NCBI GenBank assembly: GCA_016839585.1
Contig: JAEOTZ010000077.1
Span: 1 to 46,416, forward strand
Length of the DNA stretch: 46,416 bases
Origin: Promethearchaeota archaeon
GTDB lineage: Archaea > Asgardarchaeota > Lokiarchaeia > Sigyniarchaeales > SOKP01
Direction: 5' to 3'
A program made the position numbers and the translations under genes. Under the pieces are notes generated by a model that saw only the letters and a program-made list of their open reading frames with translations, was not told the origin of the DNA and did no database searches. Numbering within the stretch: position 1 is the stretch's first letter; every line of letters begins with the position of its first letter. Of this stretch, positions 6,270 through 20,122 are shown in pieces.

Positions 6270-6470
6270 ATCCCATAATAATTCTGGTTTATTGAGAGGA
6301 TTAACATCATAATTGGATTGAACAAAAGGGGTAAAAAGAAAAAAAGAGATTATCAAACTTCATTTATCAAAAACTCCCTTAATCAAAATTAGGAAAAAAA
6401 GGAAAAGAATTAGAGGTAATTCCGCTTCCTAGGTAGGCTGAATTGATAGTTGTCCAGCATTTCATTGAAA
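6270..6470. repeat. Diverged direct repeat, copy 1 (non-coding tail plus LAGLIDADG 3' end)
   Basis: Aligns by eye with 8464-8734 through blocks such as CCATAATAnTTCTGGTTT, ATTAACATC, GGGTAAAAAGAAAA, TCAAAAACTCC and CAGCATTTC. Confidence 0.85.
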
Positions 6471-8161: not shown

Positions 8162-8342
8162 TTTATTTCGCTAAAAATTTATATACTTGTATGGAAAAAG
8201 ATCATAGATAGTTATTTAAGGTTTTTGCAAGTGTGAAAGCACCTCCCCAAAATAAGATTATAAGCATTAATAAAAATATATAAATCAAGAATATTCAGCA
8301 CAGCATAGGTGAAATAGTAAAAAGAAGAATAGGAGGACAAAC

Positions 8343-8436
8343 TATGGTGAGAGGTGATATTGTTCAAGAACTTTGTCTGGGACAACAAGGTTGCTCGTTA
8401 AAAAAAAGTAATATCCCTCGAAGCAATCTCACCATA
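8343..8436. repeat. 10-bp inverted repeat enclosing a nested hairpin
   Basis: TATGGTGAGA (8343-8352) pairs with TCTCACCATA (8427-8436). Inner pairings GATATTG/TAATATC and AACTTTG/CAAGGTT. Confidence 0.5.
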
Positions 8437-8463
8437 ATTTCACTTTTTTATAAGCTATACTAT

Positions 8464-8734
8464 ATCCATAATACTTCTGGTTTTTTGAGAAAATTAACAT
8501 CGTAATTATTTTGGAAAAAAAAGGGTAAAAAGAAAATAAGAGATCATTTATCAAACGTCATTCATTAAACTTTATTTGCTTGTGTTTAATCCTTGTGTTA
8601 AATACTTGTGTTTAATGCTTCTGTTTAATGGTTGTCAAAAACTCCTTATTAAAGCAAAGAAAAAGGAAAAAAATTATTTTATAATTCGTTTCCTTGGTAG
8701 ACTGAATTTGTAGTTTTTCAGCATTTCTCTGAAA
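8464..8734. repeat. Diverged direct repeat, copy 2 (non-coding tail plus LAGLIDADG 3' end)
   Basis: Homologous to 6270-6470. Minus strand 8733-8674 encodes FREMLKNYKFSLPRKRIIK*, against FNEMLDNYQFSLPRKRNYL* in copy 1. Confidence 0.85.
8579..8630. repeat. 4 x 13-bp tandem repeat
   Basis: CTTGTGTTTAATC / CTTGTGTTAAATA / CTTGTGTTTAATG / CTTCTGTTTAATG. Confidence 0.9.
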
Positions 8735-8790
8735 TTACAGGTCTTGAAAATCTAGTAAATCTACAAGAATTAGATTTACGATATAACAAG
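8728..8790 (+). pseudogene. Isolated leucine-rich-repeat fragment
   Basis: SEITGLENLVNLQELDLRYNK is one SDS22-type LRR unit, similar to repeats in 17661-18647. Confidence 0.75.
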
Positions 8791-9049: not shown

Positions 9050-9166
9050 CTAATTACTAGTTATGTCTGAGAAAAATTTAGGTAGAAAATACTCTTCATC
9101 GATTTTGGCTCCCTCTCCAGTGATTTCATAATATATCTCAATATCTTTAACCTTCTCTTTTGGCAT
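9050..9166 (-). pseudogene. Alpha/beta-hydrolase N-terminal fragment
   Basis: MPKEKVKDIEIYYEITGEG is a typical alpha/beta-hydrolase start; unrelated sequence follows and the frame stops after 38 aa. Confidence 0.7.
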
Positions 9167-9223
9167 GGTACCACTACTCAATAACTATTTAGTTAATATT
9201 GATACAATGTTAGAATTTTTAAA

Positions 9224-9242
9224 ATGTTCGAAAAGTGCACCT
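9224..9242 (+). repeat. 19-bp junction/promoter motif ATGTTCGAAAAGTGCACCT, copy 1
   Basis: Exact match to 10475 and 12724; TTTATAA begins 6 nt downstream. Confidence 0.95.
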
Positions 9243-9303
9243 CAAATCTTTATAATTATGTAGGCAAAAACTTAATTAAACATTCAAAGATAATTGATGA
9301 AAA

Positions 9304-10398
9304 ATGAATTCAAAGAAACTTCTATCAAAGAAATTTCTCTTTATTATTATAGTATTTTTTATGTTTTTATCAAACGGTAATAAAGTATATGCTGATTTAA
9401 ATATAAATCCACAAAAGATCGGGCAATTCGACACTTTAAATGCCTGGGATGTTGTTGTAATCGATGATATAGCATATATCGGGGGAACTGAAGAAGGGTT
9501 GCAAATTATTGATGTTTCTGACCCTCGCAATCCAACCGAGTTGGGGCACCTTGACCTCGGAGTAACTCACAGTATCGACGTTCTTAATGGGGTTGCTTAT
9601 TTAGCGAATTATTTTAGTGGATTACAAATAGTCAATGTATCAAATCCATTAAGTCCTATTAAGATAAGTGATTTCTACGATGGAGGACATGTTTCTGATG
9701 TTTTCACTGTTGGAGATCTTGTTTATTTAGTGAGTCTAGAAAATGGACTTGAAATTATTAACTGCAGCGATATTAGACATCCAACTAAAATTGGTGAATA
9801 CAACGATGGTGGATCACCTAACGGGGTTTTTATTAAAGGAGACTTAGCTTATATAGCAGAATACCATGCAGGTCTTGAAATAGTCAACATCTCAGATCCA
9901 TTTAATCCTTTCGAAATCGGTGGATGTTTTAATGGGGAAGGTGCTTACAGTGTTAAGGTTATAGATAATATTGCTTACTTATGTTATAGTTCAAACGGTT
10001 TAGAGATCTTGAATGTTAGTAATCCTAACCTTCCGACTACTTTAGGATCATTCAACAACGGAGGTATTGTATACTTTGCTTTCATTTTAGATGATATGGC
10101 TTTTCTATCAGATGATAATGATGGGCTTGAAATCGTTAATATAAGTGATCCCACTAATCCTTGGAAGATAAGTGGATTTAATGACGGAGGGCACACGAGA
10201 AATTTATTTGTTGATAATAATTTAGTATTTTTAACTGATTTAGATGACGGTCTGGAGATCCTTGAACTCTCAAATGTACCGACAATTCAAAATTTTGTTC
10301 CAACGGAAATTGTAATCACTATTGTTATCCTATGTTCAATTCTCGTCATTACTGGAGGTTATTTTATGTACAGACACCTAAAAAAGAAAAACTTTTAA
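9304..10398 (+). CDS. LVIVD-repeat beta-propeller surface protein
   Basis: Signal peptide, seven AY.....GL.I.(D/N).S.P..P-type repeats, C-terminal TM and basic tail. Confidence 0.9.
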   Translation: MNSKKLLSKKFLFIIIVFFMFLSNGNKVYADLNINPQKIGQFDTLNAWDVVVIDDIAYIGGTEEGLQIIDVSDPRNPTELGHLDLGVTHSIDVLNGVAYLANYFSGLQIVNVSNPLSPIKISDFYDGGHVSDVFTVGDLVYLVSLENGLEIINCSDIRHPTKIGEYNDGGSPNGVFIKGDLAYIAEYHAGLEIVNISDPFNPFEIGGCFNGEGAYSVKVIDNIAYLCYSSNGLEILNVSNPNLPTTLGSFNNGGIVYFAFILDDMAFLSDDNDGLEIVNISDPTNPWKISGFNDGGHTRNLFVDNNLVFLTDLDDGLEILELSNVPTIQNFVPTEIVITIVILCSILVITGGYFMYRHLKKKNF

Positions 10399-10474
10399 TA
10401 AAGAAGAAAGTACATAAAATTAGAGGAAAATAATCCTTTACAATTATTTCAGATGAATCTTGAAAATTATTAAA

Positions 10475-10493
10475 ATGTTCGAAAAGTGCACCT
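10475..10493 (+). repeat. 19-bp junction/promoter motif, copy 2
   Basis: Exact match; also shares the upstream TTAAA with copy 1. TTTATAAA begins 5 nt downstream. Confidence 0.95.
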
Positions 10494-10549
10494 AAACCTT
10501 TATAAATAGTATGAAAATAGAAAAGATAAAGGTTAGAAAGATTAATTAG

Positions 10550-12106
10550 ATGAAAGTGATCATTACTAAAATATGCTCTCGAATCGTCAACACCATAATC
10601 CTGATTTTTTTGCTTGTAGGGACATCTACTTCAAGTAGTATGTTTATCGGAAATGAACATCTTTTTAATTATCAATTTAACCAACAACTTAAAGAGAGTA
10701 GTTTACAAAAAGACTCTGGAAAATATGATATCTTACAGCAATCTAATCTTCCCCGAAAAAATTACTTTTATCCTCCTTCTAACAATAACCAGAACTTATC
10801 TCAGAATAAAAATTTTAATGAAATAGGAGATCAACGAGCTTTCTGGGTCTGGGACTTCAATACTTGTTCATATTTTAAAATGAATGCAACATTGGTTTCA
10901 ATAGGAGAAAATTGTTACATTTATATGGAAGATTATTGTATAGCAGAATTAGGAGAGCAAGCTGCAGCTATAAAAGGGGAAAATATTTGCACTGAATTCG
11001 ACTATACAATTTATCCTCAAATTATTGATTTAGCTGGACATCCTAATGGAACATTGGGAGATATAGATGGAGATCCAAGAATCATAATTCTGCTTTCTCA
11101 TAATCCTATTAGTTATTACGATCAGAGAAATGAACTCCAATTAGAATATTCTAACCAGTGTGAGATGTTCCATATTTATTATAAAACATGGATACCTACC
11201 ATTGCACATGAGTTTCATCATCTCATTTGGTTTAACAATGAAATGGATGAACCTCACTTCACTCTTGAAGCTTTAGCGGAATATGCCATGTATCATGCTG
11301 GTTATTTAGCTCCATATAACAACTTAAACCCTCAGTCAGGTCTCTTTCTTGACCATCCTGAAGATTCTCTTCTGTATTGGAATATGTTAAATTCTATTGA
11401 TTATGGAGGTGCCTATTTGTTTGCATTCTACATCGCTGAGCATTATGGTGTTGATATTCTTCGAAATCTGATAACAGAAACTGCGGATGGAGCCTATGGA
11501 ATTGAAAATGTTTTACAAAGAGCAGGCAATAATATTACATTCAATGAACTATATTTGAATTGGATTACAGCATTGACTTTAGACAAGTTGGGATTTAAAA
11601 ACAACCTCTATGGTTTTGAAAATCTAGACGCTCGTGTTACCAAATACTCTCTTATTAGGGAATCCTCGCTTAGTGATGAAGTAAAGCTTTACTATTATGG
11701 CTTTCATGTTCATAAATTACAGTCTCCTTCTAATGAATGTACAGTTGAGATTCGAAAAGACATAGATAAAACAATAGGCTTATCTATTGTTTTTCATGAT
11801 GCTTTAGGATGGCATGTATATCAAAACCTACATAATAGGGGGATTAAATTAATTACTGAAGATATTTCTGGTTCTGAAATTGATGAAATGTACATTATTT
11901 CCAGTTATATATTCGACCAAACGCCACCTCCTCCGCCTGAAAATGGGCTTGGACCATTTACCTACATTAAGATTATCATTGACACTATAACCGAAGGCTC
12001 ACTTATCCCTTTTTTAACAATTAGTGGAAGCTTCACTTTAATACTATTTGTAATTATGATTATTATCATCAATAAAAAGTATAAATTAAAAAAACAAAAT
12101 AATTAG
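10550..12106 (+). CDS. Membrane-anchored zinc metallopeptidase (M30/hyicolysin-like)
   Basis: GDIDGDPRIIILL, AHEFHH (HEXXH), LEALAEY and DYGGAYLF motifs; signal peptide and C-terminal TM. Confidence 0.85.
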   Translation: MKVIITKICSRIVNTIILIFLLVGTSTSSSMFIGNEHLFNYQFNQQLKESSLQKDSGKYDILQQSNLPRKNYFYPPSNNNQNLSQNKNFNEIGDQRAFWVWDFNTCSYFKMNATLVSIGENCYIYMEDYCIAELGEQAAAIKGENICTEFDYTIYPQIIDLAGHPNGTLGDIDGDPRIIILLSHNPISYYDQRNELQLEYSNQCEMFHIYYKTWIPTIAHEFHHLIWFNNEMDEPHFTLEALAEYAMYHAGYLAPYNNLNPQSGLFLDHPEDSLLYWNMLNSIDYGGAYLFAFYIAEHYGVDILRNLITETADGAYGIENVLQRAGNNITFNELYLNWITALTLDKLGFKNNLYGFENLDARVTKYSLIRESSLSDEVKLYYYGFHVHKLQSPSNECTVEIRKDIDKTIGLSIVFHDALGWHVYQNLHNRGIKLITEDISGSEIDEMYIISSYIFDQTPPPPPENGLGPFTYIKIIIDTITEGSLIPFLTISGSFTLILFVIMIIIINKKYKLKKQNN

Positions 12107-12355
12107 CTATAAATTTGAAAATTTAATAATAATAATAACCGTTTATAGGTGCTGGCTTAGAGATTGTCGGATTTATATTAATGAAGAAAGATTTGAGAGT
12201 TTCATAAACCTGCTATTATTTTCTGCTTTTATAATATTTCTTTGGGTTCCTTCTATAACTTTTAGTTGAATTGTTTAAAAAATGAACTTTGTATGAATTT
12301 CGAGATAGAATAAATAGGATTTAATTAAACCACTTACTAGAATAATAAGAGAATA

Positions 12356-12715
12356 ATGGTTGAATTCTGTCCTGAATGTGGAAATATGTTAAGGAAAAAT
12401 CCCTGTCCATGTGGATATAGTGATCATGAGACACACATTAAATCTGACACCTTGCTCCAAATTTGGGCTCCTCCTTCACCCAATATCATATATTGTAGAA
12501 TAACTGCCACACCATATGATAAACTAAAATTAATGTTAAATAAAGGGATCTATCTCGAAAAATTAAAAGAAATTAAATACAAAATAAAAAATCGTCTTTA
12601 TTCTTGTATTGACTGCGTTTATTATCATGAGGAAATATTTCATTGTAAATTAAAAAATAAGTATTTAAGAAAAGATTCCATATGTAAGAGCTTTGAACCT
12701 TATGAAAAAATATAA
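12356..12715 (+). CDS. Cys-rich zinc-binding protein
   Basis: FCPECGNML..PCPCG N-terminus (RpoM/TFS-like ribbon) and CIDC...HC...C C-terminus. Confidence 0.75.
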   Translation: MVEFCPECGNMLRKNPCPCGYSDHETHIKSDTLLQIWAPPSPNIIYCRITATPYDKLKLMLNKGIYLEKLKEIKYKIKNRLYSCIDCVYYHEEIFHCKLKNKYLRKDSICKSFEPYEKI

Positions 12716-12723
12716 TGGTTTTT

Positions 12724-12742
12724 ATGTTCGAAAAGTGCACCT
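12724..12742 (+). repeat. 19-bp junction/promoter motif, copy 3
   Basis: Exact match; 8 nt after the stop at 12715. TTTAAAA begins 6 nt downstream. Confidence 0.95.
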
Positions 12743-12829
12743 TAAAGCTTTAAAAGCTCTGTTTCTTCTAAACAATTAGAAATAATTAACTACAATTCAT
12801 AATGAAATAAAAAATGAGAATGAAAAAAA

Positions 12830-13423
12830 ATGATTGAAAAGTTTAAATCCACTATTAAAAACTCTATAATCACTATTTCATCTTTATTAATTCCAGTTTT
12901 TCAATATATACCATGTGCTTCTATATGGTTTGGAGTTATGAGCATTCCTTTAATTACATATTTTAGTTATTTTTTAAGTAATCCTCAAATTGCGATGCAT
13001 GATTTTGAATTCTTTTTATCTTATGGCTTTCCATGGAGTGTTATGGCACTGTTCGGAGCTTTATTTTTTATTTATTCAATCGTATATCAATTAATTCATC
13101 GAAAAGAACTAATAAGAAAGGGACCTTACAAGTACGTAAGACATCCACAATACTTAGGAATAATCATAATGACTCTCGGGCTTACGATGATTTCTCTCAA
13201 TACATCTCCCATTTTCCCATTTGATAATGAATTCTCTTATGGAAATTCTCTCCTAGTATTCATTTGGTTTATGGAAGTAATTGCTTATATCATTTTAGCT
13301 AAAATAGAAGATTATTCATTGACAAAAAAGTATGGGAAGAGTTTTATTGAATACGAGAACTCTGTTGGTTTTATAATCCCAATTTTAACTATTAAACAAT
13401 TTAAGATTAGTGAATCAAATTGA
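12830..13423 (+). CDS. Isoprenylcysteine carboxyl methyltransferase / PEMT family membrane protein
   Basis: LIRKGPYKYVRHPQYLG and ED..L..KYG..F.EY motifs. Confidence 0.88.
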   Translation: MIEKFKSTIKNSIITISSLLIPVFQYIPCASIWFGVMSIPLITYFSYFLSNPQIAMHDFEFFLSYGFPWSVMALFGALFFIYSIVYQLIHRKELIRKGPYKYVRHPQYLGIIIMTLGLTMISLNTSPIFPFDNEFSYGNSLLVFIWFMEVIAYIILAKIEDYSLTKKYGKSFIEYENSVGFIIPILTIKQFKISESN

Positions 13424-13470
13424 ATAGGAAACTTTTAAAATTATATATAATCAATTTCTTTTTATTTAAT

Positions 13471-14202
13471 ATGAGTTTTTTAAAAAAAGAAATAAGGAAA
13501 TACAAAAGATTATTTTATATCAAATTAGGTATTATCATTACTCTTATTTGTATTTCATTAATTTCTATATTTCCGCTATTACCTCCCGATGAAGAGTTTT
13601 TTGCTCCTAAAAATTACACATTTAATTGGTTTTTAATAGGTTTATTAGCATTTTTAACACTCATTTTTTCATCATTTTTCATCTTATTAACTGTTAATCA
13701 GTACAAAGACTATTTTAGGAGAAAGACTATAATAACTGGAGGACGTGATTATTTATCTTTCGAAGATATTTTTGAAAATGAGAATCGGAAAAATATAATT
13801 AATAAAATTTTGCAAGAACCCGGAATTCATAATAATGAACTCCTAAGACAATGTAATTTGCAAAAAGGACAGTTACAATGGCATCTATATGTACTATTAA
13901 AATATGGAATAATTAAAAGAGAGAAATTAGGGCAATATATTTCTTTTTTCCCTGTTTTATTCAAAATAGAAGTGAAAAAAATACCATTAAAATTGATAAA
14001 AAAGTCAAAAACTAGTCTAAAAATTTTGAATTTAATTGAAGAGAATCCTGGCATTAATTCAGCGATGATATCCAGGAAATTAAATATGAGAAGAAGTTCG
14101 GTGAAATATCATGTTGATAAGCTGGCTAAACTTGATTTTATAATACTTGAAAAATATAATCGTGAAATTAAACTATATGTAAGTCAAAAAGATTATGAAT
14201 AA
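13471..14202 (+). CDS. Membrane-anchored double winged-HTH regulator
   Basis: Two TM segments, then NRKNIINKILQEPGIH...LQWHL and ILNLIEENPGI...VKYHVDKL. ATG 13471 is preferred to TTG 13420 because a TATA-like element precedes it. Confidence 0.8.
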   Translation: MSFLKKEIRKYKRLFYIKLGIIITLICISLISIFPLLPPDEEFFAPKNYTFNWFLIGLLAFLTLIFSSFFILLTVNQYKDYFRRKTIITGGRDYLSFEDIFENENRKNIINKILQEPGIHNNELLRQCNLQKGQLQWHLYVLLKYGIIKREKLGQYISFFPVLFKIEVKKIPLKLIKKSKTSLKILNLIEENPGINSAMISRKLNMRRSSVKYHVDKLAKLDFIILEKYNREIKLYVSQKDYE

Positions 14203-14206
14203 ATAA

Positions 14207-15085
14207 TTAACCTAGTGGTTTTGGGAATCTATTTTTCATTGCCATTTCCTTTTGAATAATTTCATCTAATAATTCTTCACGTTCTTTACCAGACAGCACT
14301 TCTAATTGTCTAATATTTAATGGATCGACTTTTTCTCTTAACAATCTGATTTCTTTTACTGTTGGAGGTTCAGTTTCCTTTAAATTTTTAGTAAATAGTA
14401 ACTCAAAGTCAGTGGATTCTTTCAATTCTTCAATTTCAATACCCGGATGAATAGAGTCTACTCTCATCCTTTTACTTTTTTCTTCGAAATCTAAATAAGC
14501 TAAATTAGTTATTACACATTGAGGACCAGAACCTCCACATATGGAAGCTTTTCCGTTTGGAAACCCAACTCCTGATATAAAGTCGAGTTTTTCAGTTGGG
14601 ATGAATGTTCTTTTATCATGACGAGGAGTATAAAGGAAAGAACCACGAGAATAGAACATACTAAAATCAAGTATACCTGCCGCCCCAGGAAGTCTAATCT
14701 TAGGTCTATTCCAATCCCCAATACATATATTGTTTGTATTTCCATATTGGTCAATTTGAGCAGGCCTAAAGAATTCTATTGTGGTAAGTTTATCAGAAGG
14801 AAGTGATTCCAAGGTACATTCCACACTATTTTGAAATCGATATGCTCTTGCTGTATTCATTTCATGATAAAGCAAACTCACTTGCCGAGGTTCTAGGACA
14901 AATGTATTTCCCATAATGTAATGATATATTGCATCTGGTGCATGAGTTACTTTTGCTAAAGTGAAAGCGACCCATACCATAGGAGTCGCTACACCAACGA
15001 TCATTACATCATCGTTTCTAACTTCCCTTGCCATTAAAACAGTCATCATCTCATCTATAGTATAATCCTTCGAATGTTCTTTCAT
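14207..15085 (-). CDS. Acyl-CoA transferase beta subunit (glutaconate CoA-transferase B-like)
   Basis: AQIDQYGNTN, RLPGAAG, VITNLA.LDF and SIHPG motifs. Confidence 0.9.
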   Translation of the reverse strand: MKEHSKDYTIDEMMTVLMAREVRNDDVMIVGVATPMVWVAFTLAKVTHAPDAIYHYIMGNTFVLEPRQVSLLYHEMNTARAYRFQNSVECTLESLPSDKLTTIEFFRPAQIDQYGNTNNICIGDWNRPKIRLPGAAGILDFSMFYSRGSFLYTPRHDKRTFIPTEKLDFISGVGFPNGKASICGGSGPQCVITNLAYLDFEEKSKRMRVDSIHPGIEIEELKESTDFELLFTKNLKETEPPTVKEIRLLREKVDPLNIRQLEVLSGKEREELLDEIIQKEMAMKNRFPKPLG

Positions 15086-18647: not shown

Positions 18648-18788
18648 AATTCCTTAAATATTTTTGATGAAAAAAAATGTGTTATGTGTATTTCGATTAA
18701 GCGAGTATTTAGACAAATAAGGAACGATTTTTTTTAAATTTTTACTAAAATATTCGGTTCTTTTTAACACTAAATAATTTTTGAATAA

Positions 18789-18919
18789 TTAATTTTTTTT
18801 AGCTTTATCTAATTGTTCTTTTAATTTTACAAAAAAGTCTGGAGTAGAAATTTTATAAGGAATTGGATATCTCGTACCTGCTTTATGTGTTTCTTTCATA
18901 CCATCAATTAAATCAGTAT
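18789..18919 (-). pseudogene. Relic second copy of the DUF169 gene 3' end
   Basis: TDLIDGMKETHKAGTRYPIPYKISTPDFFVKLKEQLDKAKKN*. 11 mismatches in 120 nt against 19346-19465, counted by eye. Confidence 0.9.
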
Positions 18920-19320: not shown

Positions 19321-19345
19321 ATAGAAAATTAATTCACAAATAAGA

Positions 19346-20122
19346 TTAATCTCTTTTTGCTTTATCTAATTGTTTTTTCAATTTTATAAAAAAGTCAGGA
19401 GTAGAAATCTTATAAGGAATGGGATATCTCGTACCTGCTTTATGTGTTTTTTCCATACCATCAATAATTTCGTTAACGATTTCGAAAGGAATAGATGCTA
19501 TTAAATCAGTATCCGTTGCCATTCCAAAACGTCGATCCCCCAAACATGGAAAAGCTATCTGTAAATCTTTTGTAAGAATTGCATTTGATATGATATCAGC
19601 ACATACACCATCGCAAAATGTTGACATTGAAACTCTCCCTCCTCTCTTCCATAAGTATCCCTGAATTATTCTCATTATCTGAGCAGAATTTCCCCAAATT
19701 AAAATCAGATCAGGCTCAAAATCTATACGTCTTAAAGCTCCTGATACAATTGCAGAATATTGACCATAAGGAATTTTAGGCATTGTAGCTGTCGTTTTTT
19801 TAGCAGCTTCTTTTGTTTCATTATATCTTCCTATGAAAAATGCCCCTTCCTCAAAAAGTCTATATGATTCTTCAAATCCAATAGAAATTTCTGCTAATGG
19901 GCATAAATTATCTCCTTTTACGCATCCCATTGTCCAACCATAATATCTAGCATAACTGAATATCTGACATAATGCAATTTTATGTTCTGGTTTTTTTAGA
20001 AATTTAATTTGCTCTAAATCTTTAGAGTTTTCAAGTAATTTTACTCCTACAGGGAAAGTAGCTAATCTTAGATACTTATTTAATTGATTATCTAATTTCT
20101 CATAATTACACAATGAAATCAC
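19346..20122 (-). CDS. DUF169 family protein
   Basis: L.L.TFPVGVKL, CQ....AR..G, CP.A, PDLILIWGN..Q, C.D and PCLGDR motifs. Confidence 0.88.
   Translation of the reverse strand: MISLCNYEKLDNQLNKYLRLATFPVGVKLLENSKDLEQIKFLKKPEHKIALCQIFSYARYYGWTMGCVKGDNLCPLAEISIGFEESYRLFEEGAFFIGRYNETKEAAKKTTATMPKIPYGQYSAIVSGALRRIDFEPDLILIWGNSAQIMRIIQGYLWKRGGRVSMSTFCDGVCADIISNAILTKDLQIAFPCLGDRRFGMATDTDLIASIPFEIVNEIIDGMEKTHKAGTRYPIPYKISTPDFFIKLKKQLDKAKRD

Follow-up and report, generated by a model that had tools for sequence, protein, structure and literature searches.

A short promoter-proximal motif in a Promethearchaeota genome: probable operator of a membrane-anchored winged-helix regulator and recurrent crossover point

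Membrane-anchored one-component regulators, such as ArnR of Sulfolobus and those of the ToxR/CadC type, tie a DNA-binding domain to the membrane, receive their input through a partner or an external domain, and act on surface genes. In homology-facilitated recombination at short repeats in variable islands, a long conserved anchor on one side is combined with short homology on the other, and genes come and go with no dedicated enzyme. For TFB-RF1 (PF1088) of Thermococcales, a dyad TCTG-N5-CAGA lies at a conserved distance just upstream of the transcription factor B recognition element (BRE) and TATA box, and the targets of the protein are the membrane-protein operon that encodes it and a single unlinked one (PMC5937170). 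Archaeal integrons and clusters of attC sites lacking integron integrases (CALINs) have been reported as enriched in Asgard archaea (10.1101/2022.02.06.479319). Here we analyse a 19-bp motif that recurs in front of unrelated genes in a 46,416-nucleotide stretch of a Promethearchaeota archaeon (contig JAEOTZ010000077.1 of assembly GCA_016839585.1; hereafter the window), which is one complete contig of a 3.45-Mb genome (G000). On the evidence of comparative genomics, the motif is most probably the activator operator of the adjacent membrane-anchored tandem winged helix-turn-helix (wHTH) protein, and also a recurrent crossover point via short homology.

The 19-mer ATGTTCGAAAAGTGCACCT was found exactly at 9224, 10475 and 12724, each time on the plus strand, with 0.01 matches expected by chance; no further copy with up to two mismatches exists in the 3.45-Mb genome beyond this trio. 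As an earlier note on this DNA had described, a TTTA(T/A)AA box starts 5-6 nt past each exact copy, and the genes behind are unrelated: an LVIVD propeller, an HExxH protein, and an ICMT/PEMT-like protein followed by the wHTH regulator. The locus is organised as follows (window positions; TM, transmembrane):

9102..9166, minus strand: remaining 5' end of a truncated alpha/beta-hydrolase gene, which in relatives is divergent to the motif
9224..9255, plus strand: proposed operator copy 1 (9224-9242) and BRE/TATA-like box
9304..10398, plus strand: LVIVD beta-propeller (PF08309) with hydrophobic segments at the N- and C-terminus, possibly anchored at the surface
10475..10505, plus strand: proposed operator copy 2 (10475-10493) and TATA-like box, 5-nt spacer
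10550..12106, plus strand: putative membrane-anchored metallopeptidase, HExxH at residue 220, weak NF045524 match
12271..12289, plus strand: decayed fourth motif copy without TATA box; the same flank in relatives carries an intact copy and ICMT
12294..12715, plus strand: inserted stretch with the last MeaB codons and a 119-aa Zn-ribbon gene (12356-12715)
12724..12755, plus strand: proposed operator copy 3 (12724-12742) and BRE/TATA-like box, the likely promoter of the ICMT-wHTH operon
12830..13423, plus strand: ICMT/PEMT-like membrane protein, overlapping the regulator gene and fused to the regulator in two relatives
13420..14202, plus strand: two-TM tandem winged-helix regulator (PF24266 and PF13412), the proposed cognate factor
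14207..15085, minus strand: CoA-transferase gene, a frequent neighbour 3' of the regulator and part of the conserved anchor

A matrix built from the sites describes an imperfect dyad, GTnC-N7-GnAC, followed by YAAWNY-TTTAWW, in which the dyad pairs G3/C17 and T4/A16 are almost invariant. The spacing between motif and TATA-like box is rigid, being 6 nt in 139 and 5 nt in 16 of 155 sites, a list chosen partly by the presence of such a box. Among unselected exact matches in metagenomes, 49 of 56 have the box at the same distance, and the other seven are chance matches in unrelated DNA. The motif is thus a semi-palindromic site at constant distance directly 5' of BRE/TATA, the arrangement that marks an archaeal activator site. 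True sites score 17-36 bits on the matrix. The copy at 12271-12289, overlooked in the earlier note, has five mismatches and 3.7 bits. The degenerate copy which that note had placed near 8235 is no motif site, with a score of -25.6 bits.

With up to two mismatches allowed, 73 of the order's 154 genomes have the motif, among them 44 of the 53 in the genus, with 1-4 copies each, against four matches for the reversed control; with a looser class-wide pattern, control matches were too numerous for the result to be relied on. The genes behind 155 distinct sites are ICMT (69), LVIVD (28), a radical SAM (rSAM)/SPASM operon (25) and peptidase (9), along with a 4-TM protein, an SBBP propeller and others; conversely, 44 of 50 ICMT genes have the motif at their front. 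Sites also occur in arrays of 2-4 co-oriented units, each headed by one site, and several array genes have no copy at their front. The genome-derived sites comprise 47 variants among 105, an ordinary operator-like degeneracy, and the mean difference between copies within a locus is 2.4 bases. All copies are identical in only 2 of 25 multi-site arrays (exact identity had been a main argument of the earlier note for a recombination site); that of the window trio is a chance property of this array, which carries the commonest variant three times.

The rSAM/SPASM operon, absent from G000, encodes 1-3 small single-TM proteins and a methyltransferase in a layout resembling that for ribosomally synthesised and post-translationally modified peptides. 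Motif-headed, it is found at three chromosomal places or within the array; in many genomes it stands solo and distant from the regulator, beside atpA or at two other loci (L numbers denote loci):

atpA locus: L100, L105, L123, L142, L145, L146
elsewhere: L091, L093, L109, L118, L147, L149
elsewhere: L133, L135, L140

The distribution of the motif follows the regulator. A genome with a close homologue of the 13420-14202 gene mostly has the motif too, and further wHTH loci missed by the strict search carry a motif variant at the promoter position in all 16 cases with upstream DNA on the contig. Other genera and families, too, have motif variants adjoining regulator homologues, either in tandem or divergently. 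Three loci of family f3 have a variant 29-33 nt 5' of the wHTH open reading frame, where the chance of such a score is below 0.003 per 1.6 kb. In genus g6, which lacks the ICMT gene, the same wHTH pair is preceded within one protein by a signal-like segment, a domain of 480 residues and a pair of TM helices. Up to nine regulator homologues occur per g6 genome; a motif variant lies beside nine, ahead of large surface proteins, one of them divergent. These 750-aa sensor-wHTH fusions (L193, L194, L165, L192, L197, L199) adjoin surface protein genes of 630-1500 aa, some with PKD domains, which are headed by the motif variant, in places doubled. ICMT and wHTH are fused into proteins of 430-431 aa in L090 and L108, and L186 has a doubled ICMT of 414 aa ahead of the regulator. 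The first recognition helix is almost invariant among motif-associated regulators, while a G000 paralogue on another contig (C55) has different helices and no motif site beside it. Nearest Atlas clusters of the window regulator are from Promethearchaeota, and a PDB search returned a single weak match, to an unnamed DNA-binding protein. The site is therefore kept together with its presumed cognate helix-turn-helix regulator, including ahead of the regulator's own operon, as is typical of an activator site. An activator site abutting the BRE, which the earlier note had offered as its alternative, fits best.

Comparison of related loci revealed that unrelated genes are exchanged at the motif. Thirteen clusters of upstream flanks are each joined to 2-5 different gene families. 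Across 34 swap pairs, which are not independent, identity is about 0.9 as far as the first motif position and has dropped to background at position 24, which is in the BRE; position 1 goes with the upstream flank and position 24 with the downstream flank. All three window copies take part: the flank of copy 1 leads into ICMT in L148 and peptidase in L106 and L116, that of copy 2 into ICMT in L040 (39 of 40 upstream bases identical, with a different gene behind), and that of copy 3 into peptidase in L159 and LVIVD in L085. Alignment ends cluster at +20 to +39 when approached from the left and at -10 to +4 from the right. Motif windows hold 70 of 423 intergenic breakpoints in 4.7% of intergenic bases, a 3.5-fold enrichment. 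The earlier note had held that gain or loss of genes would break exactly at a recombination site, whereas an ordinary transcription-factor site would combine operator-like degeneracy with breakpoints elsewhere. Swaps do break within motif and BRE/TATA, and the degeneracy is there as well, but 353 of 423 breakpoints (83%) lie outside motif windows, and the whole island shuffles.

Some of these off-site events are visible in the window itself. The hydrolase stub at 9102..9166 is the leftover of a rearrangement that severed the gene 122 nt upstream of copy 1, not at the motif. Behind the copy at 12271, the MeaB tail and Zn-ribbon gene were inserted; this copy has lost its TATA box and decayed. 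In 15 of 17 other loci, the Zn-ribbon gene closes a MeaB/nitroreductase operon with no motif ahead. Motif-headed LVIVD units have likewise been relocated, the breaks lying 20-122 nt before the motif. The order of units is polar: cargo stands only upstream of the ICMT-wHTH anchor (LVIVD 17:0, peptidase 8:0, 4-TM protein 11:0).

We propose that the membrane-tied regulator binds the dyad just upstream of BRE/TATA and recruits basal factors, and would thereby activate the ICMT-wHTH operon to which it belongs and a small set of genes for surface or membrane proteins, namely the LVIVD and SBBP propellers, the peptidase, the 4-TM protein and the rSAM/SPASM operon. An activating rather than repressing role is suggested because the site lies upstream of BRE/TATA and not over it (PMC5937170). 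The ICMT-like partner is the likely entry point of the signal: two relatives have it and the regulator as a single protein, and in g6 an external domain of 480 residues stands in its place and would take this part. Selection would hold the 32-bp operator-BRE-TATA stretch uniform ahead of every unit, and crossovers would fall in these repeats because they are the sole homology between unrelated units. Recombination between two direct copies could then delete a unit, and a new one could come in on DNA that pairs with the ICMT-wHTH anchor at one end and with the motif at the other.

Several observations weigh against this proposal. Motif and regulator co-occur in 62 of 69 versus 24 of 84 genomes, a contrast that physical linkage and kinship inflate and that therefore does not count as independent support. 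In seven genomes the motif is present but no close regulator match was found, possibly owing to fragmented assemblies. Mean divergence across a genus is below 2.5 of 19 positions, which is tight for an operator. Finally, the crossover is not localisable more finely than from motif position 2 to BRE position 23, and a fixed cleavage point would also fit.

This last point bears on the principal alternative, close to what the earlier note had favoured: that the motif, with its built-in promoter, is a target of site-specific recombination, at which an unlinked recombinase (the single XerA or another enzyme) moves motif-headed cassettes at the ICMT-wHTH platform. Breaks inside the repeat during gene replacement, the assignment of positions 1 and 24 to opposite flanks and the co-oriented arrays with one site heading each unit would all agree with it, and cassette arrays without an integrase have been described from Asgard archaea (10.1101/2022.02.06.479319). 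Gain and loss of genes do break at the repeated site, as in an integron, but two-sided units, free shuffling and a fixed platform were not seen; the order is polar, and at least 29 different upstream neighbours leave no fixed platform end. The linked tyrosine recombinase that the earlier note had suggested looking for did not appear: an XerA-like query had no match in 206 loci (2.2 Mb), nor was IntI found there. G000 has one PF00589 gene, scoring best as an archaeal XerA and lying on another contig (C35), and no PF00239 serine resolvase; the recombinase classes IS110 and HUH were not searched. The dif geometry ATAA-N6-TTAT, which the earlier note had read correctly in copy 3, is confined to that copy among 105 sites and is no feature of the site as such; the 11-6-11 inverted-arm pattern is missing, the integron core GTTRRRY occurs in 0 of 105 sites, and folding gave no hairpin (mean z -0.5; window sites +0.8, +0.8 and -1.0). 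No closing copy follows the regulator in any of 49 loci, and none was found behind solo rSAM operons or F97 units. Copies within one array are usually unlike, most breakpoints lie elsewhere, LVIVD units have moved with breaks well upstream of the motif, and the g6 and f3 motifs adjoin regulators, with no arrays of this kind seen. Recombination through short homology is more probable than site-specific movement of cassettes because most breaks are elsewhere, no closing copy and no linked recombinase were found, and dif and attC features are missing; a recombinase acting in trans is unlikely, and keeps a small probability because the crossover is not fixed to one bond. If such an enzyme did act, a single 32-bp element would both wire a gene to a membrane sensor and mobilise it, integron-like without attC.

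Decayed copies at the 3' end of solo LVIVD genes were considered as closing sites and rejected, since they overlap the LVIVD stop codon and represent one inherited remnant. A second LVIVD copy in G000, at a contig end (C14:7705-8113, locus L212; 96% identical over 104 aa), has its stop codon inside such a decayed copy, like the clade of relocated LVIVD genes.

It is very unlikely that the site is bound instead by an unlinked global factor, or that the wHTH protein is a repressor, the tie to the neighbouring regulator being hitch-hiking. Solo rSAM operons distant from the regulator and the seven genomes lacking a close regulator match would be expected on such a view, but there are only 1-4 strong sites per genome and none ahead of G000 housekeeping genes, the number and place of sites follow the regulator paralogues in g6, and the position upstream of BRE/TATA, rather than over it, is that of an activator (PMC5937170). 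That the motif is an operator only, and that breakpoints collect at this 5' edge of each unit simply as the DNA beyond is free to decay, accounts for the 79 upstream flank types among 155 sites and for the left-hand alignment ends, which are about as frequent 15-85 nt before the motif as at its edge, yet it is largely refuted and very improbable as a general account, true for part of the junctions only, since near-identical flanks run through the motif into unrelated genes and 24 right-hand ends lie at +20 to +39 (for example, copy 2 versus L040).

The earlier note had also placed the array in a tRNA-linked variable region, and a tRNA is indeed the sole Rfam match in the window. A tRNA-targeted integrative island was rejected: ARAGORN, which may miss intron-bearing tRNAs, found none in 60 homologous loci, so that the linkage is not kept in relatives, and the window holds no repeat of the tRNA-Ala 3' end. 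The stretch behind tRNA-Ala is duplicated in degenerate form (76-77%), with copies at 6273-6470 and 8466-8734 on either side of a WD40 gene and a leucine-rich-repeat-like fragment near 8740-8790 after the second. Just before this second copy, an element of about 135 bp (8326-8465) with sharp ends and a terminal stem, MITE-like (miniature inverted-repeat transposable element) or attC-like, recurs in G000 at C14:6488-6628 (91%) and on C37 (83%), elsewhere in two close genomes only, and has no Rfam match. A 121-nt direct repeat (18788-18908 and 19345-19465, 91% identical) has its copies 557 nt apart.

G000 also contains a separate palindrome, CGTGAAA-N6-TTTCACG, whose spacer varies greatly. None of its 11 sites is in the window; they are scattered, solo and for the most part intergenic (controls 0-2):

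C5:47211, C13:3564, C20:4682, C35:13406, C45:11159, C47:163233, C62:40565, C84:26909, C85:4794, C86:57452, C90:10950

It is present in 126 of 134 genomes of the family at up to 14 copies, and one G000 site lies 2.7 kb from the sole XerA-like gene. The observation also extends to loci L049, L050, L055, L126, L137, L094 and L154. Half-matching forms with the common spacer TCATCG flank solo LVIVD units, on the left side in L049 and L137 and on the right side in L050 and L126, a placement reminiscent of attL/attR, yet both are never on one contig. The palindrome, which resembles a Xer/dif site more than the 19-mer does, is a candidate Xer-type attachment site or global operator.

A literature search found no described binding site for Promethearchaeota and no promoter consensus for this lineage, and the motif and its wHTH neighbour provide a concrete candidate operator-regulator pair in Lokiarchaeia. 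Such a regulon could change its membership by exchange at the operator, bringing surface proteins under control at once. The exchange would be an evolutionary by-product and not a new machine, unless a recombinase turns up.

Set beside the described systems, compared by layout, the locus resembles TFB-RF1 in its dyad geometry, in a regulator gene behind a membrane-protein gene in the controlled operon, and in a tiny regulon that includes an unlinked target. It differs in the motif itself and in the two TM helices joined to two wHTH domains (PF24266 and PF13412), and the gene exchange at the operator seen here is not reported there (PMC5937170). Relative to ArnR and the ToxR/CadC type, the TM helices are N-terminal, the tandem wHTH is C-terminal and the partner is ICMT/PEMT-like. 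Integrons and CALINs likewise have co-oriented accessory genes split by a repeated site, with varying gene content, but here attC hairpins, GTTRRRY and IntI are missing, the site heads its gene with a promoter rather than closing it, and the array is polar towards a fixed 3' anchor. Likeness to Xer/dif and pdif sites extends to the geometry of copy 3 and the one XerA-like gene in the genome; the rarity of that geometry, the missing inverted arms and the unlinked position of XerA set the motif apart. Compared with homology-facilitated recombination at short repeats, the short homology here would itself be a selected operator-promoter, so that an incoming gene would arrive already wired to the regulator.

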